This document shows positions 16,064-32,502 of a DNA stretch of 53,838 bases, piece by piece. The stretch is from positions 9,331 to 63,168 of the forward strand of contig CAZQUP010000008.1 in NCBI GenBank assembly GCA_964596545.1, given 5' to 3'. The stretch's first letter is position 1; each line of letters begins with the position of its first letter. The translations under genes were made by a program, and so were the position numbers. Origin of the DNA: an uncultured Desulfatibacillum sp. Lineage in GTDB: Bacteria > Desulfobacterota > Desulfobacteria > Desulfobacterales > SpSt-501. Below the pieces are notes generated by a model. The model was not told where the DNA came from, made no database searches, and saw only the letters and a list, made by a program, of their open reading frames with translations.

Positions 16064-16196
16064 GGCATATGCCTCCCGGGGATCCAGGGAAACGGAAACG
16101 GAGGCCCGCCTTCGGCGGAAGCTCAAGTCTTGCGAAAAGGAGATGTCGGACGGCGAGCGATTTGAGGTTTTGTACTCCGCAGGAGATCGTCTCGCC

Positions 16197-17855: not shown

Positions 17856-18905
17856 TCAGGAAGCGAACAGGGCCGCCCAATCGACGGCCGCCACCCCGGG
17901 AATTTCGACCCCTTGCCAGGCAAGAAAGGCCTCGATGCGCGATGCGGCCTCGGCGGGAAGGGCGCCCTCGAGAGTCTCCGCCAGCCGCTCGATCGCGTCC
18001 GGCGGGTAACAGAAAAAATCCCCCGAGAGCGAAACCTCGTGCAGCTTTCCCTCGAGCAGCGCGAAGTCGGCCCGGAGCAAGCCCCCCTTCGCCTTGTGCA
18101 CGCGGTGGAGAAGATGCAAACCGGAGCGGATGCGGATTTCGCGTCCACGCCCTCGGCCGCGCCGCTCGAGCAGCCAGACCTCGCTTACGAATACGGAGCG
18201 CAGCGCTTCCACCTTGGCGCGGAGCGCGGAATCGACCTCCCGGCGGACGAGCGGTCCCACGAGGCGGGCGAACTCCTCGGCCAGCAGGCCGCGCACGCGC
18301 TCCGGCGTCCAGGCGGCGGCCCGCTCCGCGCCCAGCTCACGGCCGACCGTGGAGAGGTTCTCCGCGAGGGTCTTGAAGACCTTGTCGCGGAACTTCTCGT
18401 CGGGAACGTTCAGCACCCGGGACATCGTCTCGTAGTCGAAGTCGAGGATCACGTTGCCCACAAAGACGAGACCCTCCCCGATTTCTCCGACCCCGGATCC
18501 GCTCACTTTGCGCGCCCCGGCGACAATGTCGTTCAGCGGCTTGTATTCGGCCGCGATCCCCATGCGGCGGTAGACGCGCACGACCGGCTCGAGGAAGCGG
18601 CGGTAGAAGGCGTCCCGCGACGGCGGGATGCGCGGGTCGTCCCGCCGCAGGACGAGCTGGAAGAAGACCTGCCCGCCGTCGAGATAGACCGCCCCCCCGC
18701 CCACCTCGCGACGATAGACCGGAATGCCCCGTTCGCGGCAGAAGGCGAGATCGACCTCGCGCGCGGCGTCCTGGTGGTAGCCGACGCAGACATAGGGGGT
18801 CGCGGGGGAGAGAAGAAAGAGCCCCTCACGCCCCAGATCGGCCAGGGCATGGTAGAGCAGCTGGGAATCCAGCGCGGGAACACGTCCGAGATCGTAGAGA
18901 TCCAT
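17856..18905 (-). CDS. Lipoate-protein ligase with fused accessory domain (LplAB/sLpl(AB)-like)
   Basis: VCVGYHQ, RREVGGGAVYLD, KVSGSG, GNVILDFDY..VPDEKFRDK; C-terminal KAKGGLLR..SGDFFCYP. Start trimmed to MDLYDLG (GGAGG RBS). Confidence 0.9.
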   Translation of the reverse strand: MDLYDLGRVPALDSQLLYHALADLGREGLFLLSPATPYVCVGYHQDAAREVDLAFCRERGIPVYRREVGGGAVYLDGGQVFFQLVLRRDDPRIPPSRDAFYRRFLEPVVRVYRRMGIAAEYKPLNDIVAGARKVSGSGVGEIGEGLVFVGNVILDFDYETMSRVLNVPDEKFRDKVFKTLAENLSTVGRELGAERAAAWTPERVRGLLAEEFARLVGPLVRREVDSALRAKVEALRSVFVSEVWLLERRGRGRGREIRIRSGLHLLHRVHKAKGGLLRADFALLEGKLHEVSLSGDFFCYPPDAIERLAETLEGALPAEAASRIEAFLAWQGVEIPGVAAVDWAALFAS

Positions 18906-18952
18906 CGACTCCTCCGACGAGGGAAACGCCTCCGTGAGAAGTTCCGCGCGGG

Positions 18953-20158
18953 TCAACCCGGCGGGCGCTTCGGCTCGGCGAGCGCCCGCCGCAGGAGCTG
19001 GACGATGTCCAGCACCTCGAGCGGCACGCGGTTGCGGCGTACGTGGCTCGTCATCACCCGCACGCACTGCGGACAGGCGGTGACGACCGCCCGGGCGCCG
19101 GTGGCGAGCACCTCCTCGATCTTCGCCGCGGCGATCCGCGCCGCAAGCTCCGGATCGACCATCTCGAGGTTCCCGCCGCCCCCGCAGCAGAGGCAATCTT
19201 CGCCGTGGCGGGCGAGTTCGACGAGCCGGAGCCCGGGGATCGCGCGCAGGAGTTCCCGCGGAGCCTCGTAGATTCCGGCCCCGCGTCCGAGATCGCAGGG
19301 GTCGTGGTAGGTGACGGGGAGGCGAAGCTCCTGAAGACGCAGCCGCCCCGCGCGCAAAAGAGAAAGCAGCATTTCGGGGGCGGAAAGAAGCTCGATCTCC
19401 GCCCCGTAGTGCTCCTGCCACATGCGGCGGCAGGAGGGGCAAGCGAAGACGACCTTTTTCGCCCCGCGGCCCTTCACGGCGGCGAGATTGTGTTCGCGAA
19501 AGGCAGCGAACATCTCCATCAGGCCGGCCCCGAGCATGGGAAAGCCGCAGCACCACTCTTCTTCGCCCAGCAGCGTGAAGTCCGCCCCGGCCGCTTCCAG
19601 GATCTCGGCCAAGGCGACCGGAATCTTCTGCGCCAGGGGGAAAAAGGACGAGACACACCCGGTGAAGTAAACGACCTCAGCTCGTCCTTTGCAAAAGCCG
19701 TCCGCAGGAGGCCGACGCATCTCCTCCACCCACTCGGCCCGTTCGGCGTTGTCTTCGCCGAAGACGTTTCGGGTCTCGCCGAGGTTGCGGCGGATGGCAT
19801 CGATTTTCGCCGGGAAGCGTTTTCGCCGGACAAGTTCGCCGCGAAGAGCCGTCCAGAGCTCCTTCAGGCGGATCCCGAGGGGGCAGACTGTTTCGCAGCG
19901 TCCGCAGAGCGTGCAACGGAAGGAGTCTTCGGCGAAACGATCGAGCCTCTCCGGATCGGGCGGCCGGCGGCGCAGCAGCCGGGAAAGCAGCCTGCGGTCG
20001 CGGAGAAGAAGCGTCTCCACCCCGCGCAGCCGCGTTAGGGGGGCCAGTCCCCCGCTCGCGGCGGCCGAGGCCGCCGGGCAGACCTCGGCGCACAGCCGGC
20101 AGCGCGTACAGGCGCCGGCCTCGAGCATCTGGCGCAGGCGGAAGCCGGTTCGGCTCAT
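18953..20158 (-). CDS. HdrD/GlpC-like Fe-S oxidoreductase (2x[4Fe-4S] plus two CCG domains)
   Basis: CTRCRLCAEVCP, CTLCGRCETVCP; YFTGC..WCCG..CPSC and YHDPC..CCGGGG..CPQC. Confidence 0.9.
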   Translation of the reverse strand: MSRTGFRLRQMLEAGACTRCRLCAEVCPAASAAASGGLAPLTRLRGVETLLLRDRRLLSRLLRRRPPDPERLDRFAEDSFRCTLCGRCETVCPLGIRLKELWTALRGELVRRKRFPAKIDAIRRNLGETRNVFGEDNAERAEWVEEMRRPPADGFCKGRAEVVYFTGCVSSFFPLAQKIPVALAEILEAAGADFTLLGEEEWCCGFPMLGAGLMEMFAAFREHNLAAVKGRGAKKVVFACPSCRRMWQEHYGAEIELLSAPEMLLSLLRAGRLRLQELRLPVTYHDPCDLGRGAGIYEAPRELLRAIPGLRLVELARHGEDCLCCGGGGNLEMVDPELAARIAAAKIEEVLATGARAVVTACPQCVRVMTSHVRRNRVPLEVLDIVQLLRRALAEPKRPPG

Positions 20159-20577
20159 GGCTTGGCGAACTTTGCAATGTCGGCTGTGAGCCAGGCGCGC
20201 ACGGCCTCGGGCCCGTGGATGAGGCGGGCGAGCTCGGCCTTGTCGTCGGGCCGGATGCGGTACATCCAGCCTTTGCCGTAGCAGTCCTCATTGACGAGAC
20301 CGGGGTTCTCCTCGAGCTCCTCGTTCACCGCCGCGAGCTCTCCGCTCACCGGGGCGTTGATCTTGCCCAGCCACTTGCCGGATTCGACCTTGGCGAAGCG
20401 CTTGCCGGCCTCGAGGCGCTTTCCCGGCTCGGGGAGCTGGACGAAGACGATCTTGCCGGCAAGCTTCTGGGCGAAATCGTCCATGCCCATGACGAGAAGC
20501 TCCCCCTCGTCGCGCACCCAGTAGTGGTCCTTTTCGTAGTAGAGCTCATCGGGCATGAGATAGCCTTCGATCTCCAT
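20155..20577 (-). CDS. GcvH-fold lipoyl carrier protein (LbpA-like)
   Basis: LYY..DHYWV, GMDDFAQ, lipoyl Lys in VESGKW (canonical GcvH has ESVKA), PVSG..VNE, YGKGW. Confidence 0.88.
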   Translation of the reverse strand: MEIEGYLMPDELYYEKDHYWVRDEGELLVMGMDDFAQKLAGKIVFVQLPEPGKRLEAGKRFAKVESGKWLGKINAPVSGELAAVNEELEENPGLVNEDCYGKGWMYRIRPDDKAELARLIHGPEAVRAWLTADIAKFAKP

Positions 20578-22378
20578 GGTCCCCTCCTTCCCCGGAGCGA
20601 TTCCCCGGACGCATGCTCCCCGCGGCCGGCGGCGTCCTCCGCTCGGGGGCCAGAACGCCGGTCTCCTCGCTTCCGAGTGCGATCAGCACCGGTGCGAGCA
20701 GGATGTGAAACATCGGCCCGAAGGGGATCCAGGCGACGAAGATCCCCGTGAGCACCGCATGCAGGTACCAGACCGGCACATAGAGCTCATCCAAGCCCGG
20801 CCGGCCGTGAAAGATTCGCGCCAGCCCGTCCCCCACGAAGGCGAAGGCCGCGCCGGGCGGGTGCCCCGACATCGCGATCCGCATCCCCTCGAGCAGAAAA
20901 CCCGCGGCGGCGATCGCGGCAAGCAGCGCCGAGCCCGCCCAGGCCCCGCCGGGAAGGCCGGGAAGGCCTTTTCCGTCCTCGAAGCACCGCCGCAGCAGGG
21001 CGCAGGCGGCGCCGACAAGGAGCGCAAGCCCGGTCAGCTCGAAGAAAAGCGCGAAAAGCGTGGCCCGGCAATCGAAGAGAACCCAGGGCCAAGCGCTCGC
21101 TTTCGCCCAAAGCGAGCCGGCAAGAGCGACCAGCCCCCACAGGCAACGCAGGCCGATCGGCCAGGCGATCAGCGCATGGATCAGCCAGCGGCCGCGGTCA
21201 CATTGGAAAAGCCTCTGCTGGAACAGGCCCTCCAGCACGAAACGCGTAAGCCTGCGGCGTAGCGCGTGCCGCCGCTCTCGGCCGAGCCGCGGAGCGCCCT
21301 CCGTCGCCCCGGCGCTCAAGGAGAAGATTCTCCCCCCTCCCGTCGCCCCGAACCAGAAATAAAGGCTGCCGACGATCCCCCCTCCAAAAATGAACAACGC
21401 CACGGAAGTCACGGGATCGGCCGAAGAGAGGGTCCCGGGATGGCAGGGCAGGCAAAGCACCCCCTTGGGCGGAAGCGCCACGGCGGCCGCTCCGACCGGG
21501 TTTCTTATGTGGTGGCAGCGGCGGCAGCCATCCCTGTCGGAGGCGGCGGTCATGTCGTGGCCGATCGCCGCCGCGGGGGGCCGTACCGCCGTCACCCGAC
21601 CGGTTGTCGGATCGCGGCGAGCTGTGACCCCCTTTAGATGGCAGGCGGTGCAAGAAACCGCCAAGTGGGGGTCGTGGGCGACCGTCGCGTCGTGGCGGGT
21701 GTGGCAGGCCAGGCAATCGACCCGGGCTTGGCCCGCATGGGCGTAACGGGCGGCCTCGCGGTGGCAGGAAAGACAGGAAAAATTTCCATGCGGGCGAAAC
21801 GAGGTCTCTTCCGTCGCCAGAAGGGGTGCCGCCGCGAAAGGCCCTGCCGCATCGGCGGCCGCCTGCTCGCCGTGGCAGGAGAAGCAAAGCCGCCGGCCGC
21901 CCTCGGCCGCCTCGGGGCTCAGAGGATCCCGGAGCCGGTGGCAGACCATGCAGGCCTCTTCGGCCGGGGGGAGAGGGGGCGGCGCTTTTCGCTCTTCGTG
22001 GCAGCGGGCGCAGGAAACCGGTTCCTCCAGGGCCCCGGCGGCGGGTGCGTGCGGGTCGTGGCAGGCGACGCAGCGTCCGTAGTCCATCCCCGCCGCGAGG
22101 GTCTTGCCGGCATGGCGCTCCACTTTCAGCTCCTCGAGGACCTCGGCGTGGCACTCGGCGCATCGGCCGGGGTCGAAGGCTCCCCCGGCGAAATTTTTCG
22201 GCTCGGGGTGACGGGGCCGCCGGTCGATGTCGGCATGGCAGTCGCGACAGAGCATACGCCCATGGCCGGAGGCATGCCAGCGTGCTTCGTCCACCAGCCA
22301 GCCGCCTTCCGCTCCCCCCGGCGGGAGGAGGAGGCCGAGGAAGAGCAGCCCGAACAGAACTCGTGAGCCCGCACGCAC
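20546..22378 (-). CDS. Multiheme cytochrome c (11 CxxCH) fused to a NarI/HdrE-like membrane domain
   Basis: Signal peptide; CRDCH, CAECH, CVACH, CARCH, CMVCH, CFSCH, CLSCH, CLACH, CTACH, CRRCH, CLPCH; then about five TM helices with RWLIH and WYLH-x17-H. GTG start at 22378 is inferred. Confidence 0.85.
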   Translation of the reverse strand: MRAGSRVLFGLLFLGLLLPPGGAEGGWLVDEARWHASGHGRMLCRDCHADIDRRPRHPEPKNFAGGAFDPGRCAECHAEVLEELKVERHAGKTLAAGMDYGRCVACHDPHAPAAGALEEPVSCARCHEERKAPPPLPPAEEACMVCHRLRDPLSPEAAEGGRRLCFSCHGEQAAADAAGPFAAAPLLATEETSFRPHGNFSCLSCHREAARYAHAGQARVDCLACHTRHDATVAHDPHLAVSCTACHLKGVTARRDPTTGRVTAVRPPAAAIGHDMTAASDRDGCRRCHHIRNPVGAAAVALPPKGVLCLPCHPGTLSSADPVTSVALFIFGGGIVGSLYFWFGATGGGRIFSLSAGATEGAPRLGRERRHALRRRLTRFVLEGLFQQRLFQCDRGRWLIHALIAWPIGLRCLWGLVALAGSLWAKASAWPWVLFDCRATLFALFFELTGLALLVGAACALLRRCFEDGKGLPGLPGGAWAGSALLAAIAAAGFLLEGMRIAMSGHPPGAAFAFVGDGLARIFHGRPGLDELYVPVWYLHAVLTGIFVAWIPFGPMFHILLAPVLIALGSEETGVLAPERRTPPAAGSMRPGNRSGEGGDHGDRRLSHAR

Positions 22379-22385
22379 CGTCTTC

Positions 22386-23756
22386 TCAAGGGAGATAGAT
22401 GGCCCAGCCGAGCGCCTCGCGCGCCGCTTCGGATAAGGACTCGGCGATCGTGGGGTGCGGCAGCGCCGCGCGGGCGAGCTCCTCGAGGGTGGCCTCCATC
22501 TGCAGGGCGAGCGCCCCCGCGCCGATGATCTCGGTGGCAAACGGGGCGAGCACATGGACCCCCAGAAGCTCGCCGTAGCGTTTGTCGCCCACGACCTTGA
22601 CCACCCCGTGGGCCGCCCCCTGGATCATGGCCATCGGCGTCGCCGCGACCGCCGCCGTTCCCGTGACGACATCATATCCCGCCTCCTCGGCCTCCTCTTC
22701 GCCGAGACCCACAGAGGCCGCCTGCGGGCTGGTGAAGGCGATCCGGGGAACCATGCGCGGGTCATAGGTCCGGGCCGCCCCCAGGGCGTTTTCGGCGGCG
22801 AGGATCCCCATGGCCGTCGATCCGTGGGAAAGGTCGGGAAAGCAACCGGTCGCATCGCCCACGGCGAAGATGCCGGGAACGGCGGTTTGCAGCTGTTCGT
22901 TCACCCGCAGGTCCTTCAGCCCGACCGATTCGAGGCCGAGATCCTCAAGGGCGGGGCGGCGCTCGAAATGGATCACCCGCTCGAAGGGCCGCGTCTCCTC
23001 GCGGTCTTTCACGGAAAGCGCGACCGCAAGGCCCCCTTCGGGATTCCTGGCCGCCCGGATCACGCGGCATCCGGCAAGAAAGGCCAGCGGGTCGTTTTTC
23101 CAGGCGGCGCGCAGCCGCTGGCCGATTTCGGGGTCGAAACCCGGAAGCAGCCCGCGCTCGCGCGCCGCCACGGTGACGCGGCAGCCGCAGGCGGAGAGAA
23201 ACTGGGCCCACTCGAGCGCCCAGGGGCCCGCGCCGAGCAGGAGGGCCGAGGCGGGAATCTTCGCCTCCTCGAGCAACCGCGCGGGGTGGACCACGGCCTC
23301 GAGATCGGCGCCCGGAAAATCCGGACGGACCCAGGCGGCGCCGACGGCGAGAATGACGACTTTCGCCTCATAGGGGGATTCGCCCACGACCACGCGGCCG
23401 GGTCCGGCAAGACGCCCGCGGCCGGCCAACAGCGACACCTTCTTCGCCTTGAGCAGCCCCTCCGTCCCCATGGCGAAATAGGAGACGAGCTCGTCTTTCA
23501 AGCCGAAGAGGGCCCCGGGGTCGATTTCGCCGGCCACATCCCGCAGTCCCAAACGCGCCGCCGCCGCCAGCCCCCGGCGGCGCTCCACCGCGGCCGCGAA
23601 GAGTTTGGTCGGTACACAGGCGCGGTTCAGGCAGAACCCTCCCCAGTGCACGGCCTCCACAAGGGCGGTCTTCGCCCCGAGCTGGCTTGCCCGGACGGCG
23701 GCCGCCACCCCGCCCGGACCGGCGCCGATCACGATCACATCATAGGACTCCGCCAC
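22386..23756 (-). CDS. lpdA: Dihydrolipoamide dehydrogenase (E3)-like flavoprotein with atypical pyridine-nucleotide site
   Basis: GAGPGG FAD motif, GGFCLNRACVPTK redox disulfide, HPTIAE. The second Rossmann motif reads GAGPWALE. Confidence 0.82.
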   Translation of the reverse strand: MAESYDVIVIGAGPGGVAAAVRASQLGAKTALVEAVHWGGFCLNRACVPTKLFAAAVERRRGLAAAARLGLRDVAGEIDPGALFGLKDELVSYFAMGTEGLLKAKKVSLLAGRGRLAGPGRVVVGESPYEAKVVILAVGAAWVRPDFPGADLEAVVHPARLLEEAKIPASALLLGAGPWALEWAQFLSACGCRVTVAARERGLLPGFDPEIGQRLRAAWKNDPLAFLAGCRVIRAARNPEGGLAVALSVKDREETRPFERVIHFERRPALEDLGLESVGLKDLRVNEQLQTAVPGIFAVGDATGCFPDLSHGSTAMGILAAENALGAARTYDPRMVPRIAFTSPQAASVGLGEEEAEEAGYDVVTGTAAVAATPMAMIQGAAHGVVKVVGDKRYGELLGVHVLAPFATEIIGAGALALQMEATLEELARAALPHPTIAESLSEAAREALGWAIYLP

Positions 23757-23789
23757 GGTTTCCTCGCCTCCCGGGATCGTTTCCGAGTC

Positions 23790-24998
23790 TCACAGCATGA
23801 GCGCCGGTTCTTCGACGAAGCGGCTGACGGTCTGGAGAAAAGCCGCGCCGGCCGCCCCGTCGATGATGCGGTGGTCGAAGGTGAGGGAGAGCGCGATCCG
23901 CGCCTCGAGGCGCACCTCGCCGGCAACGGCGACCGGTTTTTCTTCGATGCGGCCGATCCCTAAAATCGCGCTCTCGGGGGGGTTCACGATCGGCGTAAAG
24001 CGATCGACCCCCCAGGCCCCCAGATTGGTGAGGGTGAAGGTCCCCAGATTCAGCTCATCCAAGGTGAGCCGCCCGGCCCGGCCCGCCGCGGCGAGACGCT
24101 GCAAGTCGGCCTCGATCTCCTCAAGCGTTTTCGCGTCCGCGTGGCGCACCTTGGGGACGAAGAGCCCGTTTCCGAAGTCCATCGCCACCCCTACGTGGAT
24201 TTCCCGCCAGACGCGGATCACCTCCCCCTCGACGGAGGCGTTCATCCGGGGATGACGGCGCAGAGCCCGGGAGATCGCTTGAACGAAGAAGGCGTTATAG
24301 GAGACGGGCGCACCGGCCTCTTTTCTTTTCCGTCGTAACCGCAGCAACGCTTCGGCCGAGGCCTCGGTGTGCATCGTGATCTGGGCCTGGGAGGCGAGGC
24401 TGGTGTGCATGTTGCGGAAGATCGCCCGCCGCACGCCGATGATCGGGATCTCCTCGAGCACGGTCAGCGCGCTTTCCCCGGCGGCGCCAATCGGGGGGGC
24501 TTTCGGAGCGGGGCGGGGTTCTTCGAGCGCGCGCAACACGTCCGCCCGCACGATGCGCCCCGCGGGGCCGGAGCCCGTAAGGGCGGCAAGGTCGACCCCG
24601 TGGGCCCGCGCGATCGCCCGCGCGGCCGGCGAGGCCTTGATGCGGGCGGAGGGGGGTGCGGGCGCAACCGCGGCGGAAGGACGAGCGGAGGCGGCCACCT
24701 CGGGAGTCACGGCCGCGGCGGGCTTTTCCGCGGCAAGTCGCGCGAGTTCGGCCGCATCGGCGGCGAGATAGCCCACGACTTCGCCCACCGCGATCCGGCT
24801 GCAGGTCCAAAGCGGTGCGCACCTCGTCGCTAAGATCAGTGAGCGCGGCGACATGGCGGCGAAGGTGACCTTGTCGGTTTCCAGAACGAGAACGATCTCC
24901 TCCTTGCGGACCCGCGCGCCGGGGGCCGCCTTCCAGGCGACAAGCACCGCCTCTTCCATGGTTAGTCCGAGCTTGGGGACCGCGATTTCGATCGCCAT
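23790..24998 (-). CDS. acoC: Dihydrolipoamide acyltransferase (E2)
   Basis: PKLGLTMEEA..ETDK lipoyl site, ASPAAR..GSGPAGRI binding domain, FDHRIIDG catalytic motif. The aco symbol is from context. Confidence 0.8.
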   Translation of the reverse strand: MAIEIAVPKLGLTMEEAVLVAWKAAPGARVRKEEIVLVLETDKVTFAAMSPRSLILATRCAPLWTCSRIAVGEVVGYLAADAAELARLAAEKPAAAVTPEVAASARPSAAVAPAPPSARIKASPAARAIARAHGVDLAALTGSGPAGRIVRADVLRALEEPRPAPKAPPIGAAGESALTVLEEIPIIGVRRAIFRNMHTSLASQAQITMHTEASAEALLRLRRKRKEAGAPVSYNAFFVQAISRALRRHPRMNASVEGEVIRVWREIHVGVAMDFGNGLFVPKVRHADAKTLEEIEADLQRLAAAGRAGRLTLDELNLGTFTLTNLGAWGVDRFTPIVNPPESAILGIGRIEEKPVAVAGEVRLEARIALSLTFDHRIIDGAAGAAFLQTVSRFVEEPALML

Positions 24999-25013
24999 AC
25001 GCTTTCGCCTTTC

Positions 25014-25997
25014 TCAGCGGTTGCAGACGCTGCGGGCGGCCGCGACGACGTCGGCCGCCCGGGGCAAAACGAAGTCCTCCAGCGGGGGCGAAAAGGGAAT
25101 CGGCACGTCCTTCGCCGCGACCCGCAAAACCGGGGCGTCGAGGAAATCGAAGAGCTCGGCCTGGATGCGCGCGGCGAGCTCCGCACCGAAGCCCCCCGTC
25201 AGACAGGCCTCGTGCACGATGACCGCCCGGAAGGTCTTGCGCAGCGAGGCGGCGACGGTATCGAAATCAAGCGGCTTGAGCGTCCGCAGATCCACGATCT
25301 CGGCCTCGATCCCTCCGCGGGCGAGCTCCTCTGCGGCCTCCCGGCACAGGAAGTACCCCGAGCCGTAGGTGAAAAGGGTGAGGTCCCGCCCCTCGCGCTT
25401 GACCGCCGCCCGGCCGAGGGGGATGAGGAACTCGGGGTCCTCGGGCACCGGGCCCTCGCGACGGAAGAGACGCTTGTGCTGGAAGAACATGACCGGATTG
25501 TCGTCGCGGATCGAGGCCTTCATCAGCCCCTTCACATCGGCCGGCTCGGAGGGGACGACCACCTTGAGCCCCGGGGTGTGGACGAACCAGGCCTCAAGCG
25601 ACTGGCTGTGCTGGGCCGCGGCGCGCAGGCCGGCGCCGTCCGGGCACCAGACGACGAGCGGCAGTTTCACCTGGCCGCCGAACATGTAACGGATCTTCGC
25701 CGCCTGGTTGCAGAGCTCGTCCATGCCGCAGGTCACGAAGTCCGAAAAATGGAAATCGACGATCGGCCGCATGCCGGTCAGCGCAGCCCCCACGCCGCAG
25801 CCGGCGATGCAGGTCTCGCTGATCGGGGTGTCGAGGATGCGGTCCGGGAACTTCTCGGGAATGCCCTTGAACTGTCCGAAAATCCCGGCATGGGCGGTCA
25901 GGTCTTCGCCGAGGATGAAGATCCGCTCGTCGCGGGTCATCTCCTCGATCAGGGCCTCGGCCAGCGCGGCCGAGGCGCTCAACAGGCGATCGCTCAT
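25014..25997 (-). CDS. acoB: TPP-dependent dehydrogenase E1 beta subunit (acetoin dehydrogenase-like)
   Basis: ILGED, DTPISE, NQAAKIRYMFGG, AAAQHSQSLE, DLRTLKPLD. Confidence 0.8.
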   Translation of the reverse strand: MSDRLLSASAALAEALIEEMTRDERIFILGEDLTAHAGIFGQFKGIPEKFPDRILDTPISETCIAGCGVGAALTGMRPIVDFHFSDFVTCGMDELCNQAAKIRYMFGGQVKLPLVVWCPDGAGLRAAAQHSQSLEAWFVHTPGLKVVVPSEPADVKGLMKASIRDDNPVMFFQHKRLFRREGPVPEDPEFLIPLGRAAVKREGRDLTLFTYGSGYFLCREAAEELARGGIEAEIVDLRTLKPLDFDTVAASLRKTFRAVIVHEACLTGGFGAELAARIQAELFDFLDAPVLRVAAKDVPIPFSPPLEDFVLPRAADVVAAARSVCNR

Positions 25998-26061
25998 CTC
26001 CTCCCTCCTTTTCGCCGCGGGGGCCGTCCCGGCGGCCGGATCCGCTGCAGCCGCGCGATTC

Positions 26062-27054
26062 TCAGGCGAAGAGGTCTTCGAGCGCCTCCTCCGGACGCGG
26101 GAAGGGGCTTTCCTTCGCGAAGGCGACCGCGGCGTCGAGCTCGGCGCGGACCTCCTCCTCGATGCGCCGGATCTTCCTGGCGGTCAGCACCCCGCGCCGG
26201 CGCAGATATTCTTCAAAGCGGCGGATCGGATCGTTTTCCGCCTGCCAGCGCTGCACCTCGGAGGGATCGCGGTACTTCTGGGGATCGCCCTCGAAGTGGC
26301 CGCGCACGCGGTAGGTCTTGTTTTCGATCAAGCTCGGTCCCTCGCCGGCCCGTGCCGCGGCCACGGCCTTGCGCGTCGCCTCGCGCACGGCGAGCACATC
26401 GTTGCCGTCGACTCCGTAGCCCGGCATGTTGTAAGCCGCCGCCCGCAGGCAGAGATCCCCGACGGCGCAGGCGTAGCTCTGCGGGGTCGTCGAGGCGTAG
26501 CGGTTGTTCTCGATGACGAAGAGGACCGGAAGCCTCCAGATCGAGGCGAGATTCATCGCCTCGTGCACCGGCCCGCGGTTGGCGGCTCCGTCGCCGAAGA
26601 AGACGACCGCCACCTGGTCGGTCCGGCGCAATTTGATCGAAAGCCCCGCCCCCACGATCAGGGGGAGGCCCCCGGCGACGACACCGTTTGCCCCCAGGAT
26701 GCCGATCGAGAAATCGGCGATGTGCATGGAGCCGCCCTTGCCCTTGCAGTAGCCCGTCGCCTTGCCGAAAAGCTCGGCCGTCATGCGCCGGACATCGGCG
26801 CCCTTGGCGATCATGTGGCCGTGGCCCCGGTGGGTGGTCGCCACGTAGTCGTCGGGCCGCAGGCAGGAGCAGACCCCCACGCTGGAGCCTTCCTGCCCGA
26901 TCGAGAGATGGATGAAGCCGGGGATCTGACCGGCCGCGAAGTACTCCCCGGCCATGGTTTCGAAGAGCCGGATCTTCACCATCGTCCGGTACATCGTCCG
27001 CCAGGCCGTCTTTTCGACCGGGCGATCGTCCTTGCGCTCCTTCTCTTTGGCCAT
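26062..27054 (-). CDS. acoA: TPP-dependent dehydrogenase E1 alpha subunit (acetoin dehydrogenase-like)
   Basis: IPGFIHLSIGQE, THRGHGH, GKGGSMH, GDGA...ENN TPP motif, GHFEGD. Confidence 0.8.
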   Translation of the reverse strand: MAKEKERKDDRPVEKTAWRTMYRTMVKIRLFETMAGEYFAAGQIPGFIHLSIGQEGSSVGVCSCLRPDDYVATTHRGHGHMIAKGADVRRMTAELFGKATGYCKGKGGSMHIADFSIGILGANGVVAGGLPLIVGAGLSIKLRRTDQVAVVFFGDGAANRGPVHEAMNLASIWRLPVLFVIENNRYASTTPQSYACAVGDLCLRAAAYNMPGYGVDGNDVLAVREATRKAVAAARAGEGPSLIENKTYRVRGHFEGDPQKYRDPSEVQRWQAENDPIRRFEEYLRRRGVLTARKIRRIEEEVRAELDAAVAFAKESPFPRPEEALEDLFA

Positions 27055-27088: not shown

Positions 27089-27574
27089 TCAGGACGCGGG
27101 GTCTTCGCTTTCGCGGAAGCCGAGGACCTTCATTTCCACCGCGGGATCGAAGCGCCGCAGGGCCTCGATCCCGGCGAGTACGCCCAGAGTCACCTCGCAG
27201 GTGATGAGCACCGGGGCGGAGCCCGCGATCAGATGCCCGCCGTGGCAGCGGGCGGATCCGTCGCTCACGAGGGCATGCACGTGCAGGTAACGCCCGCCGT
27301 CCTCTTCCAAGCCGATGGTCCCCTGGGTACCGACGAGTTCGAGAGGTCCCTCGATCGCGATCGGCTCGCCGTAGCCTCCCCCCGCCTTGTTGGGAAGCGG
27401 GACCGCGGTGAAAAGCGAGGCGCGCCGGAGGCTTCCGATCGCCGCGAGCACGACGGCGCAGGAAATCCCCCGCTCGCGGCAGACCTGCTCGATCCCCGCA
27501 AGCACATCGCAGCCCGGCTCAAGGCGGAAGGAGACGACCGTTCGGATTCCGCCCGCGGCATGCCCAATGTTCAT
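27089..27574 (-). CDS. DUF296/PPC domain protein
   Basis: FRLEPGCD, AIGSL, HVHALVSD..GGHL..TCEV. Start trimmed to MNIGHA. Confidence 0.85.
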   Translation of the reverse strand: MNIGHAAGGIRTVVSFRLEPGCDVLAGIEQVCRERGISCAVVLAAIGSLRRASLFTAVPLPNKAGGGYGEPIAIEGPLELVGTQGTIGLEEDGGRYLHVHALVSDGSARCHGGHLIAGSAPVLITCEVTLGVLAGIEALRRFDPAVEMKVLGFRESEDPAS

Positions 27575-27600
27575 CGTTTCTTCCCCTTCCTCCGACTTCG

Positions 27601-28368
27601 CTAAACCATCAGCGAGCCGCCGTTGGCGTCGATGCAGGCTCCGGTGATGTTGGCCGCGGCATCGCTCAGCAGAAAGCCGATGACCCAGGCCTGCTCCTCG
27701 GGATCCGCCCAGCGGCCGCGCGGAATGGAAGCCGCCACGCGCTCGATTTCCTCGGGCGTCGTGGTGGAGAGCGTCATCGGGGTAAGGGTCGCCCCGGGAC
27801 AAAAGGCGTTGACGCGGATCCCCCGCCGCCCGTACTCGCGGGCGAGATGTCGGGACAAGCCGACCAGGCCGTGTTTGGCGGCCGTGTAGTGCGCCCCACC
27901 GAGGATGCTGCAGCTGCGGCCGGCGAGCGAGGCGACGTTCACGATCGCCCCCTTTCCCCGCCCCACCAGATGCGGGATCACCTCGCGGCAGAAGAGAAAG
28001 CAGCCCCGCAGGTTGACCGCCAGGACGAGATCCCACTCCGCGCTCTCGATCCCCTCGAAGGCCGTGCGGCGCAGGATGCCGTGCCCGTTCACGAGGAAGT
28101 CGAGCGCGCCGAAGGCGGAAAGGGCGACCGCGACCGCGGCGCGGACCTCGGTTTCTCGGGCGGCATCGGTGCGGGCGGCCGCGACGCGTCGCTCCGGGAA
28201 CGTCCGCCGGATTTCGGATACGGTCTCCTCCAAGCGCCCCACGTCCAGATCCACAAGCAGGAGATCGGCCCCCATCGCGGCGATGTGCCGGGCGGCCGCG
28301 CGGCCGATGCCGCTTGCCGCCCCGGTGACGATCCCGGATTGCCCCTCGAGCGATATCTTCCAGACCAT
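27601..28368 (-). CDS. SDR family NAD(P)-dependent oxidoreductase
   Basis: TGAASGIG, NVAS, YTAAK; Asp after beta-2 (VDLD) suggests NAD. Confidence 0.92.
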   Translation of the reverse strand: MVWKISLEGQSGIVTGAASGIGRAAARHIAAMGADLLLVDLDVGRLEETVSEIRRTFPERRVAAARTDAARETEVRAAVAVALSAFGALDFLVNGHGILRRTAFEGIESAEWDLVLAVNLRGCFLFCREVIPHLVGRGKGAIVNVASLAGRSCSILGGAHYTAAKHGLVGLSRHLAREYGRRGIRVNAFCPGATLTPMTLSTTTPEEIERVAASIPRGRWADPEEQAWVIGFLLSDAAANITGACIDANGGSLMV

Positions 28369-28399
28369 GGGCCTCCCCTTCGGTCCGACGTTCTCCCTC

Positions 28400-29725
28400 T
28401 CAGCCGCCGAGCGTCACCCGGGGCAGCCAGAGGACGATCTCGGGGAAGATCATGCAGATCGCCAGCCCCGCAAGCTGCAGGACGACAAAGGGGACGACCC
28501 CCTTATAGATGTCGGTCGTCTTGATCTCGGGCGGCGAGGCCCCCTTTACGAAGAAAATGGCGTAAGCGAAGGGCGGGGTCAGAAACGACATCTGCAGATT
28601 CACGCAGACCAGGATCGCAAACCAGAGGGGATCGAACTGCAGGGCCGAGGAGATCGGCAGAAAGATCGGAACGACGATGTAGAGCAGGCCCTGCCAGGAG
28701 ATGAAAAACCCCCCGATGAAGAGCGTGAACATCATCACGCCGAGGATGAACCAGCGCCCGAAGGGAAGCCCGAGGAGCATGCTTTTGACGAGTTCGCCCC
28801 CGCCCAGGAAGAGAAAGACGGAGTTGAAGACGCCGGCGCCGATGATGATGAAGAAAACCATCGCGGTCACCAAAAGCGTCGTCTGCGCGGCCGCGCGGAG
28901 CGCAGCCAAGGTGAGCTTGCGGTAGCAGGCGGCGAGCACCAGGGCACAAAAGGCCCCCACCCCCGAGGCCTCGGTCGGGGAGGCGATCCCCTCGATGATC
29001 GAGCCCAGCACGGCCACGATCAAAAGCACCGTCGGGGCCATCTGCCAGATGGCCCGGAGCCAGAAGCGCCGGTCGCGCCGGGGCATCTCCTCGCGCGCGA
29101 TGGCCGGGGCGAGCTTCGGGTTCAGCCAGGCGCCGAGGCCGATGTAGAGGAGGTAAAGCCCGGAGAGGAGCAGGCCGGGGAAGAGGGCCGCGGCGAAGAG
29201 CTTGGCGACCGAGAGGTTCGCCATGGGTCCGTACATGACGAGCATGACGCTCGGCGGAATCAGGATCCCCAGGCTGCCGCCGGCGCAGACGACGCCGGTG
29301 GCGAGCCCTTTGTTGTAACGGCGCTTGAGCATCGCCGGCACCGCGAGCAGGGTCATCGTGGTCACGGTCGCCGCGATCACCCCCGTGCAGGCGGCGAAGA
29401 CCGTGCAGGTGAGGATGGTCGCGAAGGCAAGCCCCCCGCGCACCGGGCCGAAGAGCTCGTAGAGCGTCTGGTAGACGTTCTCGGCGACCTCGGTCTTCTC
29501 GAGGACCGTTCCCATGAAGACGAACAGGGGCACGGCGATCAGCTCTTCGCTTTCCATGGTGCCGAAAAAGGAGAGCATCGACATCTGGAAGATCATCGGC
29601 CCCATGTAGGCGAGTCCGAAGACGACGGCGAGCAGCAGAAGCGCGAAGGCGAGGTGCACCCCCCCGATCACGAAGACCAGGAGCAACCCCATCATGATCA
29701 CGGCCGCGGCCTGGTCGGGGATCAT
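28400..29725 (-). CDS. dctM: TRAP transporter large permease
   Basis: LIAVPLFVFMG, GSLGILIPPS, NLQMSFLTPPF. Confidence 0.92.
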   Translation of the reverse strand: MIPDQAAAVIMMGLLLVFVIGGVHLAFALLLLAVVFGLAYMGPMIFQMSMLSFFGTMESEELIAVPLFVFMGTVLEKTEVAENVYQTLYELFGPVRGGLAFATILTCTVFAACTGVIAATVTTMTLLAVPAMLKRRYNKGLATGVVCAGGSLGILIPPSVMLVMYGPMANLSVAKLFAAALFPGLLLSGLYLLYIGLGAWLNPKLAPAIAREEMPRRDRRFWLRAIWQMAPTVLLIVAVLGSIIEGIASPTEASGVGAFCALVLAACYRKLTLAALRAAAQTTLLVTAMVFFIIIGAGVFNSVFLFLGGGELVKSMLLGLPFGRWFILGVMMFTLFIGGFFISWQGLLYIVVPIFLPISSALQFDPLWFAILVCVNLQMSFLTPPFAYAIFFVKGASPPEIKTTDIYKGVVPFVVLQLAGLAICMIFPEIVLWLPRVTLGG

Positions 29726-30225
29726 GCGGACCTCCCCGCGCGCAAGGTCCGGATGCAGCGCGCGATCTCGGAGACGGCCTGGAGGCCGAGCAGGAAAAAC
29801 CCGAGGGGGATGAGGCTCTTCGGGGGCCCGGCGGGGAAAAACCAGTTCGTCGTGGAGAGCTTTTCGTTCGCGGCGAAGGCCTCGGCCGCAAAGCGATAAC
29901 CCGCCCAGGTGAAGAGGACCGCCGGCACGAGGAAAAAGAACGTGTAGATGATCAGGTCGTAGACCGTCTTCGCCCGTTCGGAGAGGAGGTTGTAGACGAT
30001 GTCGATGCGGATGTGGTTTTTCTGCAGCAGCGTGTAAGCCCCGCCGATCAGAAACTGGGCCGAGAAGAGCATCCAGCTCGTGTCGTAACCCCAGCCCGTG
30101 GGCGCGTTGAAGACGTGGCGCGCCGTCACCTCGTGAACGACGACGAAGAGCAAGGGGATCACGAGCCAGGCGGCGAGGTTGCCCGTGAGGCGGCTTAGGC
30201 CGTCGATGATCTTGAACAGGAGCAT
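29722..30225 (-). CDS. dctQ: TRAP transporter small permease
   Basis: EVTARHVFNAPT.W, HIRIDI; four TM segments. Confidence 0.9.
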   Translation of the reverse strand: MLLFKIIDGLSRLTGNLAAWLVIPLLFVVVHEVTARHVFNAPTGWGYDTSWMLFSAQFLIGGAYTLLQKNHIRIDIVYNLLSERAKTVYDLIIYTFFFLVPAVLFTWAGYRFAAEAFAANEKLSTTNWFFPAGPPKSLIPLGFFLLGLQAVSEIARCIRTLRAGRSA

Positions 30226-30243
30226 CTCTTGCGGTCTCCGCGG

Positions 30244-30283
30244 CGGCCGCCGGGAAAGCCTGGGCTTGCTTCCCCGGCGGCCG
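30244..30283. terminator. GC-rich hairpin between dctP and dctQ (attenuator or mRNA-stabilising stem)
   Basis: CGGCCGCCGGG (30244-30254) pairs with CCCGGCGGCCG (30273-30283). Confidence 0.5.
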
Positions 30284-30310
30284 GGTTTCCGGAGGGGACT
30301 TCGCCCGCCG

Positions 30311-31357
30311 TCAATCGAACTTGGTGAAGTCGTAGTAAGGCCGGAACTCCTGGATGAACTTCTTCTGCGACTCCCAGACCTTCTTGAAGAAGGGGTCCTT
30401 GGCCGATTTCTCGTCGAGGATCTGCATCGTGATCTCGCGCGTCTTGGCCTGATCCTCTTTCGAGAGCTTGGTCGTGATCGTGCCGTAGGCCTCGAGCTTT
30501 TTGTTGGCGGCGATCGTGTCCTGCCAGAAATCGGCGTAGCCCTGGATCGTGGCCGCCAGGGCCGCCTTCTCGACGATCCCCTGGAGGTCGGCGGGAAGCT
30601 CCTTCCAGGATTTCGTCTTGATGATGAGCTGGAAGATGTTGTTCGACATGTGCACCGGCGGCCCGAAGCGGTACTTGCAGACCTCGTGCAGGCCGAGGCT
30701 CATGTCGTAGGAGGGCTCGAGCATTTCGGCGGCGTCGATCAGCCCGCGCTGCAGACCGGGGACGACCTCACCGCCCGCGAGCAGGACGACGGAGGCCCCG
30801 AGCTTTTCCCAGAGATCCATGCTCAGACCGGCGGCGCGGATTTTGAGGCCCTTGATGTCGGCAAGGGTCTTGACCGGCTTTTTGGTCCACACCTGCTCGG
30901 GGGGGGTGAGGCCCAAGGGGAAGACGATCAGCTCCTCGCCGTACATCTCCTGGGCGAGTTGCTTGCCTCCCGCGCCGTACATCCAGACGATCAGGTCGTT
31001 CATCTCGAGAACCCCGCCCGGCAACGTGTAGAAGAGGTCGCCCGCCGGGTATTTGCCTTTCTGCCAGGCCGGGGTATTCAGCCCGAAGTCGAGCATGCCG
31101 TCGCGCACGGCGTCGTAAATTTTGGTCGGCGGGACGATCTCGCCCGCATCGTGCAGGGTGAGCTGCAGCCTGCCCCCGCTCATTTCCTCGGCATACTTTT
31201 TCCAGAGAACGATCGTGTGCTTGCCAAGCGGCGAGGCGATCCCGAAGCAGGACTCCCCTTTCCACTTGACGACCTTGTCCGCCGCCTGCAACGACCCCGC
31301 CGCCAAGGCGAGCGAAAGCAGGCACACCCACCCGATGATGAGAACCCGTTTCTTCAT
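30311..31357 (-). CDS. dctP: TRAP substrate-binding protein (TakP-like, 2-oxo/monocarboxylate clade)
   Basis: Signal peptide; MSGGRL..AGEIVP..DAVRDG, KGLKIR, LQRGLIDAAE; AAAGGAGG RBS before 31357. Confidence 0.88.
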   Translation of the reverse strand: MKKRVLIIGWVCLLSLALAAGSLQAADKVVKWKGESCFGIASPLGKHTIVLWKKYAEEMSGGRLQLTLHDAGEIVPPTKIYDAVRDGMLDFGLNTPAWQKGKYPAGDLFYTLPGGVLEMNDLIVWMYGAGGKQLAQEMYGEELIVFPLGLTPPEQVWTKKPVKTLADIKGLKIRAAGLSMDLWEKLGASVVLLAGGEVVPGLQRGLIDAAEMLEPSYDMSLGLHEVCKYRFGPPVHMSNNIFQLIIKTKSWKELPADLQGIVEKAALAATIQGYADFWQDTIAANKKLEAYGTITTKLSKEDQAKTREITMQILDEKSAKDPFFKKVWESQKKFIQEFRPYYDFTKFD

Positions 31358-31392
31358 GCTTCCTCCTTTCCGTTGGGACGCACGGCGGTGCA

Positions 31393-32502
31393 TCACCGCC
31401 GGCTCCCGCGTTGCGCCGTGGGGGTTTCCGCCTCGAAGACGACCGCAGCCTTGATGAAGCCTGCGGGCGGATGCTCGGTGGCGGCAAGCGCCTTGTCGAG
31501 ATCGTCCAGCCGAAAGATCGTGTTGTTGATCTTCTCGAAAGAGAAGCGCCGGGAGTCGATCAGGCGCACGGCGTCGGCGACGTTTCCGGCCTGCCCCTTG
31601 CCGCAGACGACCCTCACATCCCTCCAGACGAGGTCGTCGAAGGCGACCGGCGTCTCGCGGCCGCCCGAGAGCCCGATGCACACCACCCGGCCCGAGGGGC
31701 GGACCAGCGCCAAGGCCGTGCGAATGGCTGCGGGCGCCCCCGAGGTCTCGATCACCACATCGGGCGGCCCCCTCAAAAGATCGGGCACGGCCTCGAGCGG
31801 GTCCGTGCGGTCGACGGCGACGATGTGCTCGGCGCCGAACTCGCGGGCGAGGGCGAAGCGGCTTTCGTCCGCGGAGAGTCCGAGAAGCACGATCGGCCCG
31901 ACCCCGCAGGCGATCGCCGCCGCAAGCGTGCACAGCCCCTGCGCGCCAGCCCCGCTGATCACGAGCCGGGTTCCGAACCCGGCCTCCCCCAAGGTCTTCA
32001 CCCAGCGAAAGCCGTTGCCCACGACCGAGGAGAGACAGGCCGCGAGATCCGGGGGCTGCGGGGCGACCCGGTGGAGGAGGCTGCCCTCGACCAAGATCAC
32101 GTATTCCCCGTATCCGCCGCCGAGATGCGGCGGCCGGTCGCAGGGGATCGAGATCCCGTAGAGCCGCACGTCGGGGCAGTTGTGGTAATGATGCTCGGTG
32201 CGGCACCAGGCGCAACGGCCGCAGGGGATGTAGGGCTCGGGGGTCACCCGGTCGCCTTCCTTCCAGCCGTGGCGCGCCGCCGCCTCCCGGCCTGCAATCA
32301 CGACCTCGCCCACGAACTCATGGCCCATGATCAGGGGAAAGCGCGCGCGGCCGACCTGACCGTGGAAGACCTTGACGTCGGTCGCGCAGACCGAGGTCGC
32401 CCGGGTGCGCACCAGGACCTCTCCGGAGGCGGGCTCTCCGACCGGGAAGCTCCGGGACTCCAGGCGACCCGGCGCCGTCACGACCATGGCTTTCGCCTGC
32501 AT
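31393..32502 (-). CDS. Zinc-dependent medium-chain alcohol/polyol dehydrogenase
   Basis: CATD, GHE, CGRCAWC-x7-C structural Zn site, GAGAQG. Start trimmed to MQAKAM. Confidence 0.9.
   Translation of the reverse strand: MQAKAMVVTAPGRLESRSFPVGEPASGEVLVRTRATSVCATDVKVFHGQVGRARFPLIMGHEFVGEVVIAGREAAARHGWKEGDRVTPEPYIPCGRCAWCRTEHHYHNCPDVRLYGISIPCDRPPHLGGGYGEYVILVEGSLLHRVAPQPPDLAACLSSVVGNGFRWVKTLGEAGFGTRLVISGAGAQGLCTLAAAIACGVGPIVLLGLSADESRFALAREFGAEHIVAVDRTDPLEAVPDLLRGPPDVVIETSGAPAAIRTALALVRPSGRVVCIGLSGGRETPVAFDDLVWRDVRVVCGKGQAGNVADAVRLIDSRRFSFEKINNTIFRLDDLDKALAATEHPPAGFIKAAVVFEAETPTAQRGSRR

Follow-up and report, generated by a model that had tools for sequence, protein, structure and literature searches.

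A stretch of DNA of 53,838 nucleotides from an uncultured Desulfatibacillum sp. (contig CAZQUP010000008.1, positions 9,331 to 63,168), referred to over its whole length as the window, carries eight co-oriented and tightly spaced genes (Table 1). Those for a 2-oxoacid dehydrogenase complex (E1 alpha, E1 beta, E2 and an E3-like flavoprotein) are followed by those for a fusion of an 11-heme cytochrome c with a NarI-like membrane domain, a GcvH-fold lipoyl carrier, an HdrD-like iron-sulfur protein with CCG domains and a lipoate-protein ligase. This order, given in an earlier reading of the window made from its letters alone (the original prediction), is borne out by open reading frame (ORF) calls and by Pfam and NCBIfam scans of the window proteins. 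The arrangement is far beyond chance, since the full order is found in other species of the genus and a single 28-kb contig from an independent metagenome run (X4) covers all eight genes. The eight genes had originally been taken as one system, and their order does recur in the genus; however, the conserved unit is the set of cytochrome, GcvH and HdrD, usually accompanied by the ligase, into which dehydrogenases are plugged. This is indicated by the recurrence of the core with different partners and by repeated partner changes on the HdrD tree. At least two kinds of dehydrogenase can take the partner's place, the 2-oxoacid dehydrogenase and, more commonly, a GlcD/GlcF-type enzyme. Gene content, motifs, topology signals, conserved linkage and an altered E3 site are direct observations, and with them in view it is tentatively proposed, at close to but short of an even chance, that lipoylated GcvH collects two electrons from soluble dehydrogenases and delivers them to the membrane complex.

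A conserved module with interchangeable dehydrogenase partners

Within the genus, an HdrD ortholog was detected at E <=1e-100 in 16 of 24 other genomes. All eight genes stand in the same order in five of the 16 stretches concerned, and several more are colinear to the contig end; as exceptions, one stretch gave no GcvH match (G013) and another has the order GcvH-cytochrome-HdrD-ligase without E1-E3 (G001). The fusion cytochrome family comprises 81 clusters in the protein collection, and tblastn confirmed 315 relatives among species-representative genomes. When genomes were drawn evenly from the phylum, a cytochrome match at E <=1e-40 was found in 39 of 401, the window's own included, and among the matches listed a near full-length one occurs in 14 other genomes.

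Locus counts rest on the best 80 of the 315 relatives, which were scanned by tblastn with the window proteins, four proteins of locus L047 and two of locus L085; at many of these loci the contig breaks off, and related genomes do not count as independent cases, about seven of the 80 loci belonging to the genus of the window itself. Nearly all are metagenome-assembled genomes (MAGs) of Desulfobacterota, with a single cultured organism, Dethiosulfatarculus sandiegensis SPR (L085), in which the full arrangement of E1-E3 and module is present. GcvH was found at 69 of the 80 loci and an orthologous HdrD at 67, with an LplA-type ligase at 27 and an LplA-DUF116 ligase at 12, while the partners were represented by GlcD-like (37), GlcF-like (39), E1 (16), E2 (18) and E3 (17) proteins. 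When loci with at least 5 kb of downstream sequence are considered (n=51), GcvH and HdrD are each present in 48 of 51; where the downstream sequence extends to at least 7 kb (n=47), a ligase is present at 28. The co-occurrence anticipated by the original prediction has thus been found: in many Desulfobacterota, CCG protein, NarI-like/multiheme protein, GcvH and lipoate ligase are linked, whether E1/E2 are present or not.

Partner switching is best seen in those 31 loci whose sequence extends to 8 kb or more upstream and 5 kb or more downstream, where GlcD and GlcF occur together at 16, E1, E2 and E3 at eight, a partial E set at two, GlcF only at one, and neither partner at four. The GlcD-like FAD oxidase and the second CCG protein, whose identities in L047 are backed by Pfam and NCBIfam, are usually encoded between cytochrome and GcvH and are sometimes interleaved. 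On the HdrD tree (quick maximum-likelihood search) the partner label requires at least five to six changes over well-supported branches, and L085 with E1-E3 is sister to L090 with GlcDF at a support of 99. The association with E1-E3 recurs in Dethiosulfatarculus, in Desulfovibrio-labelled MAGs and in a Desulfobacteraceae MAG, with E3 adjoining the cytochrome gene.

In the window, the intergenic gaps measure 64 (E1a/E1b), 15 (E1b/E2), 33 (E2/E3), 7 (E3/cytochrome) and 47 nt (HdrD/ligase), and the GcvH gene overlaps both of its neighbours, the cytochrome gene by 32 nt and the HdrD gene by 4 nt. A GTG at 22378, 7 nt past the E3 stop, is the likely start of the cytochrome gene, an ATG at 22555 being disfavoured. 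A promoter/terminator scan gave no promoter-like site for the cluster and no terminator-like site between its genes on the minus strand; all sites found were intragenic, and the scan is uninformative in this respect. It could be supposed that an ordinary acetoin- or pyruvate-type dehydrogenase operon merely lies beside an independent Tmc-like transmembrane complex, as the core stands without E1-E3 at most of the 80 loci and the genome has two other complete E2-E3 pairs. The short E3/cytochrome junction without a terminator-like site, the recurrence of the E1-E3 association in distant lineages with E3 next to the cytochrome gene, and an altered NAD site in the module-adjacent E3, with the housekeeping E3s unaltered, nevertheless make such a chance neighbourhood improbable. 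As a separate observation, a short contig from another family of the same order (L028, G031:C213:1-4491) carries a tandem GcvH-HdrD-GcvH-HdrD with no cytochrome gene in view, which may be a cytochrome-free form of the GcvH/HdrD pair.

Carrier, HdrD-like protein and membrane fusion

The naming of the GcvH-fold protein as a lipoyl carrier is upheld by the lipoyl-lysine motif E65 S66 G67 K68 W69, which is invariant in 68 of 68 module GcvHs. The window protein shares 44% identity with the canonical GcvH of its genome and 58-99% with module GcvHs of other genomes. The module proteins read KWLGK after the lipoyl-lysine, where the genome's canonical GcvH reads KAVSE, and have a near-invariant, subfamily-specific Cys99 (NEDCYGKGW) in place of the canonical Pro (RSPYGEGW). 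Mean column identity is highest in the module for GcvH (75% over 68 sequences, compared with 69% for HdrD and 44% for the cytochrome), which fits a constraint imposed by several partners. The window GcvH scores above the cut-off of NF002270 (137 bits, cut-off 117) and below that of TIGR00527 (112.5, cut-off 115.85), and its solved relatives are ordinary H-proteins. The absence of gcvP and gcvT from the window, reported in the original prediction, holds: the sole GDC-P match of the genome is on contig C19, adjoining the other gcvH (153.8 bits) in a canonical gcvH-gcvPA-gcvPB-lipA cluster, and the sole GCV_T match is on C168. A role in glycine cleavage was rejected, the P and T proteins being encoded elsewhere and with another H protein. 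A search for longer proteins containing the module GcvH returned one match, P0082 (248 aa, one contig), in which GcvH and the start of HdrD seem to be connected by frameshifted stretches; it was put down to gene calling and not taken as a fusion. Contig C19 also carries a pair of neighbouring minus-strand ORFs, L124:6327-7397 and L124:7279-8316, each about 345-356 aa long, with C-terminal GcvH-like domains (55 and 24.9 bits) and N-terminal halves without assignment, further lipoyl-carrier-like proteins in the same genome.

Besides the window ligase, the genome has a single further gene of the LplA/LipB family, which directly precedes the lipA match of the glycine cleavage cluster. At other module loci the lipoylation genes are of LplA type, a LipB-LipA fusion, LipA, or a set composed of LplA fused to DUF116 and, behind it, a flavoprotein of the geranylgeranyl reductase family and a radical SAM protein similar to LipS1 (L047:16336-20996; the LipS1-like protein with 213.7 bits against a cut-off of 230). 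LplA-DUF116 with the flavoprotein gene behind it also occurs at L042, L045, L051, L058, L094, L097 and L112. The trio of L047 is reminiscent of sLpl(AB)/LipT/LipS1 in sHdr clusters, as far as the available text of PMC10332631 describes it, and is found here outside sulfur oxidisers. Sulfur handling of the sHdr-LbpA kind, with the lipoyl carrier binding sulfane sulfur and the CCG protein oxidising or reducing the sulfur, might be suggested by the three kinds of parts shared with sHdr clusters in the accessible accounts (CCG protein, GcvH-fold carrier and dedicated ligase), and by the presence of LipS1-like and LipT-like genes at some loci. Nonetheless, LbpA is characterised in the available portion of PMC6067878 by two strictly conserved cysteines, one near the N-terminus and the other near the C-terminus. 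The window GcvH has the lipoyl-lysine K68 and Cys99 as its sole cysteine, with no N- or C-terminal Cys among the conserved columns, and membership of LbpA was rejected since the defining cysteines are absent. Given also that no sulfurtransferase genes lie beside the module in annotated loci and that its recurrent partners are organic-acid dehydrogenases, a sulfur-handling role is very improbable.

In the HdrD-like protein, the ten cysteines of the CCG domains (C168, C203, C204, C240, C243, C288, C324, C325, C362 and C365) occur without exception in all 54 sequences, both domains keeping the five-Cys pattern Cx(n)CCGx(m)CxxC, and two CxxCxxCxxxCP ferredoxin motifs (C17, C20, C23, C27 and C82, C85, C88, C92) are invariant in the same set. 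NCBIfam scores lie far under the cut-offs for TmcB (85.7 against 735), DsrK (69.7 against 400), HmcF (70.1 against 750) and HdrB (33.5 against 345), which places the protein outside these families, and membership of Tmc, DsrMK and Hmc was rejected on this ground. The best solved match of a profile built from the 54 orthologs is EtfD (9ojn_A, residues 408-746, E 9.3e-56), HdrB reaching only about 1e-10. According to the available part of PMC13083937, Thr539 of EtfD replaces the second Cys of the first CCG and His583 caps the other cluster, and the CCG clusters only transfer electrons from the electron-transfer flavoprotein (ETF), without thiol chemistry; the accessible text on the Syntrophus ETF:menaquinone oxidoreductase (EMO) likewise describes a relay from ETF without thiol chemistry (10.64898/2026.08.18.745454). 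The window protein has Cys204 aligned with Thr539 and Ser242 with the capping His583, lacking both substitutions of the closed distal site of EtfD, and it keeps the full Cys set of catalytic heterodisulfide reductases. The thiol-disulfide chemistry attributed to it in the original prediction would be in line with the ten cysteines, but neither fold nor CCG motifs would constitute proof of such catalysis, since the EtfD and EMO clusters only transfer electrons.

The fusion protein has exactly 11 CxxCH motifs, in agreement with the original prediction; a hydrophobic segment is found at its N-terminus, and its last 290 residues contain five to six hydrophobic helices. This indicates an architecture of a signal or anchor, a predicted periplasmic 11-heme domain and a NarI/HdrE/EtfD-like membrane domain (residues ~320-575). 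The label NarI-like needs to be qualified: the window's own protein gave no Pfam match to PF02665, yet 12 of 15 aligned family members do match it (best E 1.3e-6), and fold and profile comparisons agree. In an AF2 model, the membrane part has a pLDDT of 65-90, while the heme domain is poorly modelled (mean pLDDT 55.8). Searched against 48,161 solved chains with VIA-align, the membrane domain matched Mycobacterium smegmatis EtfD (Z 13.1, rmsd 3.5, 238 aligned residues) and Escherichia coli NarI (1q16_C; Z 10.0, rmsd 6.3, 188 aligned), values that helical bundles can reach by chance, so that the fold match is supporting and not proof. Comparison with the window's own NarI by hhalign (E 4.9e-4, probability 32%) places the WYLHA...FHI stretch on the NarI helix bearing two heme ligands. 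Only H401, H540 and H558 are invariant histidines of the membrane domain, compared with four in NarI; H540 and H558 are spaced by 18 as on NarI helix V, and Arg411 stands where the second helix-II His is expected. Both the fusion and the HdrD-like protein map onto EtfD (residues 2-385 and 408-746, respectively), and on this basis the two would represent a split enzyme of EtfD/EMO/HdrDE type with an added periplasmic 11-heme domain. Shorter relatives of the fusion, with fewer hemes and the same membrane domain, are found in many Desulfobacterota (G255, G285, G129, G366 and others), their match beginning from about residue 133-220 onward.

Docking of HdrD with GcvH, a check proposed in the original prediction, gave a score of 0.43, with the best of three controls at 0.00; contact agreement among the runs was at least 88% and partner pLDDT at least 89 (custom alignments). 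In calibration, 58 of 80 solved complexes and two of 110 mismatched pairs passed the mark, and scores of 0.60 or less account for seven of the 80 solved complexes and for both passing mismatches, so that the prediction speaks weakly in favour of a complex. A different role has to be weighed here, in which HdrD acts as a wire of the EtfD/EMO kind, taking single electrons from the FAD of the E3-like protein or GlcD, while GcvH and ligase serve lipoate assembly only, for instance through a lipoyl relay from GcvH to E2 as in the Bacillus LipM/LipL route. Among solved structures, none comes nearly as close to HdrD and to the membrane domain as EtfD, whose clusters are reported as purely electron-transferring in the available text, and module loci are rich in lipoate-assembly genes. 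On the other hand, GcvH is tied to HdrD and the cytochrome (48/51) far more than to E2 (18/80) and persists at GlcD/GlcF loci without a lipoyl enzyme in cis, the genome already has LipB/LipA beside its canonical gcvH, HdrD is without the Thr and His that close the EtfD site, and the high conservation of GcvH fits constraint by several partners. A wire with GcvH confined to lipoate assembly is accordingly held to be rather unlikely.

The E3-like protein and the proposed electron path

The domain set of E1a, E1b and E2 is complete for a 2-oxoacid dehydrogenase complex according to Pfam and NCBIfam. The AcoC-type model NF011457 gives 45.7 bits against a cut-off of 307, the BudC-like score of the SDR encoded upstream is 185.3 against 270, and the substrate of the dehydrogenase cannot be named from sequence. 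An odd segment of about 59 nt is present in the E2 gene (roughly 24801-24859, minus strand), right behind the lipoyl-lysine codon and unlike all orthologs. It is 9 nt longer than its counterparts, leaves the frame open and replaces the conserved ...EMPSPGEGLLHPLV... stretch. Near-identical but fragmentary contigs (runs X1 and X2) leave it uncovered, and it could have arisen in assembly or be a genuine lesion of the E2 lipoyl domain.

The E3-like protein differs from standard E3s at its second dinucleotide fingerprint. An alignment to solved E3s gives GAGPWA...VTVAAR for the window protein in place of GxGxxG...VT(L/V)(I/V)E, solved E3s reading VTLIE and VTVVE where the window protein reads VTVAAR. 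The two other E3s of the genome, each adjoining another E2, are canonical at both sites (GGGYxG, then VTVIE and VTLVE) and reach 490 and 456 bits with TIGR01350, against 323.5 for the window protein. The third Gly of the second fingerprint is absent in 16 of 16 aligned module-linked E3s, the first or second Gly being additionally lost in those of L037, L039, L071, L079, L095 and L097, and the Glu that binds the NAD ribose is missing in module E3s of the window's genus and kept in L085 and L100. Where the alignment covered the motif, the FAD fingerprint (12/12 loci), the redox-active disulfide motif CxxxxC (16/16) and the His-Glu dyad of HPxxxE (17/17) are retained. Taken with the altered second fingerprint, this suggests that the module E3 retains dithiol and flavin chemistry, with a nicotinamide site that is changed and in some lineages probably lost. 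The suggestion in the original prediction that the pathway bypasses or complements NADH is in line with this altered site.

The electron path proposed here is inferred throughout, from the single transfers to the direction in which electrons run and the acceptor at its end. The last four genes would form a membrane redox module served by a soluble two-electron carrier, a lipoylated paralog of GcvH, and fed by the first four genes or, elsewhere, by the GlcD/GlcF pair. E1 would decarboxylate a 2-oxoacid, possibly made by the SDR dehydrogenase encoded upstream from a substrate imported by a TRAP transporter, with reductive acylation of lipoyl-E2, from which acyl-CoA would be released. The E3-like flavoprotein would accept two electrons via its redox disulfide and FAD and, because its NAD site is altered, may pass them at least partly to the lipoyl disulfide of free GcvH instead of NAD+. 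E3, as the L-protein, normally reacts with lipoyl-GcvH. In GlcD/GlcF genomes, the carrier would be loaded via the CCG subunit of that enzyme. Dihydrolipoyl-GcvH would then dock on the HdrD-like protein, where two non-cubane clusters could re-oxidise the dithiol in a reversal of heterodisulfide reduction, and electrons would proceed by way of two cubane 4Fe-4S clusters and heme b, with the 11 periplasmic c-hemes, menaquinone or both as recipients, the ligase keeping GcvH lipoylated. A precedent is provided by the sHdr model, in which a CCG-type Hdr reduces lipoyl-LbpA and E3 re-oxidises it, as given in the available portion of PMC6067878. It is also possible, though on balance not quite probable, that the GcvH paralog is a freely diffusible lipoyl counterpart of DsrC or CoM-S-S-CoB that links several dehydrogenases, among them a 2-oxoacid dehydrogenase with an E3 abandoning NAD+ and GlcD/GlcF, to an HdrDE/EtfD-like complex with an 11-heme outlet.

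Flow in the opposite direction would have menaquinol, or hydrogen or formate acting as periplasmic donors through c-type cytochromes, reducing the hemes and HdrD and, through them, lipoyl-GcvH, with the E3-like protein making NAD(P)H or serving another reductive use. Such inward flow resembles the supposed delivery of periplasmic electrons to a cytoplasmic disulfide by Tmc, Hmc and DsrMK, and is the energy-conserving direction for redox loops of the NarI type. The GxGxxA and Arg pattern of the window E3, which resembles that of NADPH-dependent relatives, and the four of 31 long loci in which the module has no dehydrogenase partner also speak for it. However, both recurrent partners, the 2-oxoacid dehydrogenase and GlcD/GlcF, are oxidative and yield reducing equivalents, the potential of lipoamide is too low for a good acceptor of menaquinol electrons, and the broken dinucleotide fingerprint of module E3s makes NAD(P)H formation unlikely in several genomes. 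Inward flow is on these grounds regarded as quite unlikely.

Several points weigh against the outward shuttle by lipoyl-GcvH that is preferred here. Its nearest characterised relatives, EtfD and Syntrophus EMO, work without thiol chemistry and only transfer electrons, so that HdrD could draw directly from the FAD of E3 or GlcD. The relay from one CCG protein through a lipoyl carrier to a second CCG protein looks redundant in GlcD/GlcF loci, and delivery from lactate-type donors (about -190 mV) to lipoamide (-290 mV) would be uphill, on potentials taken in part from the available text of PMC6067878. Electrons that leave the cytoplasm for the periplasm dissipate membrane potential, so that energy conservation is not obvious. 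The E3 of Dethiosulfatarculus (L085) retains the NAD-type Glu, the membrane domain has one His where NarI helix II has two, no ligase gene lies nearby in 19 of those 47 loci that have 7 kb or more of downstream sequence, and the docking prediction for HdrD and GcvH is weak.

Gene neighbourhood, related systems and significance

Genes for a TRAP transporter, an SDR dehydrogenase and a PCC protein (27089..31399), located upstream and co-oriented, probably share an operon with the cluster, and their order is also kept upstream in the relatives L033-L039. Downstream of the cluster, a DUF554 membrane protein is followed by a full narGHJI-narK set; a nitrate reductase neighbourhood like that of the window is seen at locus L033 as well. 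The first 2000 nt of the window (1-2000) have a GC content of 0.435, compared with about 0.65 elsewhere in the window, and may be foreign or non-coding DNA.

Table 1. Genes of the eight-gene cluster and its flanks, in window coordinates
Feature	Position	Strand	Basis
TRAP transporter DctP	about 30311-31399	-	Name from translation reading and conserved synteny
TRAP transporter DctQ	29722-30225	-	Name from translation reading and conserved synteny
TRAP transporter DctM	28400-29725	-	Name from translation reading and conserved synteny
SDR dehydrogenase	27601-28368	-	NCBIfam
PCC/DUF296 protein	27089-27559	-	Pfam PCC
E1 alpha subunit, 2-oxoacid (pyruvate/acetoin-type) dehydrogenase, 330 aa	26062..27054	-	PF00676 (E1_dh) 287.8 bits; TIGR03182 359.9 bits, below cut-off 393.85
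E1 beta subunit, 327 aa	25014..25997	-	PF02779 (Transket_pyr) and PF02780 (Transketolase_C); NF006667 356.9 bits, above cut-off 321
E2 acyltransferase, 402 aa, with one lipoyl, E3-binding and catalytic (2-oxoacid_dh) domain	23790..24998	-	PF00364, PF02817, PF00198
E3-like FAD disulfide oxidoreductase, 456 aa	22386..23756	-	PF07992 (Pyr_redox_2) and PF02852 (Pyr_redox_dim); TIGR01350 323.5 bits, below cut-off 408.8
11-heme cytochrome c/NarI-HdrE-EtfD-like membrane fusion, 610 aa	20546..22378	-	Cytochrome c3/c7 Pfam; 11 CxxCH motifs
GcvH-fold lipoyl carrier, 140 aa	20155..20577	-	PF01597 (GCV_H) 132.1 bits
HdrD-like Fe-S/CCG protein, predicted cytoplasmic, 401 aa	18953..20158	-	PF02754 twice and Fer4 (Fer4_8)
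LplA-type lipoate-protein ligase (catalytic and LplB-like C-terminal domain), 349 aa	17856..18905	-	PF21948 (LplA-B_cat) 128.4 bits; TIGR00545 119.7 bits, below cut-off 280
NarG	12362-16126	-	Respiratory nitrate reductase set
NarH	10960-12372	-	Respiratory nitrate reductase set
NarJ	gap of fitting size between NarH and NarI	-	Inferred from gap
True NarI	9741-10412	-	PF02665, 243 bits
MFS transporter (narK of the set)	8418-9713	-	Nitrate reductase set spans 8418-16126

Among known systems, the module is most readily compared with EtfD of M. smegmatis (9ojn) and EMO of Syntrophus aciditrophicus, which likewise have a NarI/HdrE-like heme-b domain, two cubane 4Fe-4S clusters and two CCG domains, and which oxidise a soluble protein-borne redox carrier and pass its electrons to the membrane, as is proposed for the module. 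These are single polypeptides with ETF as carrier, whereas the module is divided between two genes, has an extra 11-heme periplasmic domain and is adjoined by the gene of a lipoyl protein. No ETF gene was found inside the eight-gene cluster by Pfam and NCBIfam scans, with etfAB not having been searched in the other loci or the rest of the genome. An HdrD-type cytoplasmic subunit on a NarI-type cytochrome b is also found in methanogen HdrDE, DsrMK, TmcABC and HmcEF, of which Tmc and Hmc share a link to periplasmic multiheme cytochrome c, and the substrate of enzymes of the HdrDE/DsrMK type is a disulfide on a small carrier (CoM-S-S-CoB or DsrC). The module differs in that its cytochrome c and b parts form one polypeptide and in that the linked carrier is a GcvH with its ligase. 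As for the dehydrogenase genes, E1a, E1b, E2 and E3 have the complete domain sets of 2-oxoacid dehydrogenase complexes, from whose standard E3 the window protein departs in its sub-cut-off lipoamide dehydrogenase score and altered NAD site, and the window GcvH differs from the glycine cleavage H protein as a paralog without P or T protein nearby.

The sHdr-LbpA systems (sLpl(AB)/LipS1/LipS2/LipT) resemble the module in the genetic tie between a CCG-type Hdr-like enzyme and a GcvH-fold carrier with a lipoylation set, but in the accessible accounts sHdr is soluble, contains HdrA and occurs in sulfur oxidisers, while the module is predicted to be membrane-bound, with c-hemes and organic-acid dehydrogenase partners. 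Within the available texts, sHdr-LbpA is the only precedent found for a CCG-lipoyl partnership. No GcvH or lipoyl carrier tied to an HdrD/NarI/multiheme complex outside sHdr was found in a full-text literature search that excluded most subscription journals and supplements, and such clusters could be listed in the supplementary tables accompanying PMC10332631 and the EMO preprint. What appears to be new, within the literature covered, is a lipoyl-protein partner for a membrane complex of the HdrDE/EMO/Tmc type, the parts themselves being familiar and widely conserved.

The commoner partner of the module, a GlcD-like protein with a CCG subunit, resembles the LdhAB-type lactate dehydrogenases of sulfate reducers (GlcD-like and HdrD-like). 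The acceptor of their HdrD-like subunits is debated between menaquinone and a DsrC-type disulfide in the available text of 10.1101/630186. As the GlcD/GlcF pair is embedded between the cytochrome and GcvH/HdrD genes, the lipoyl carrier is a candidate acceptor for the CCG subunits of lactate/glycolate-type dehydrogenases, and if this is true, a long-sought thiol partner would have been named for the HdrD-like subunits of sulfate-reducer lactate dehydrogenases. How the HdrDE/EMO family evolved from catalysts into proteins that only transfer electrons is being studied at present, as far as the accessible part of 10.64898/2026.08.18.745454 indicates, and a third, lipoyl-protein-linked functional branch would be added to this family. 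Lipoic acid has been known as a swinging arm in multi-enzyme complexes and, more recently, for its part in sulfur oxidation; a free lipoyl protein carrying electrons to a membrane complex would constitute a new role for it. The presence of the full arrangement in the cultured Dethiosulfatarculus sandiegensis SPR makes the idea testable at the bench. If it holds, the module would be a new respiratory entry point in anaerobes, by which strict anaerobes would run lipoamide-dependent 2-oxoacid dehydrogenases without loading the NADH pool.

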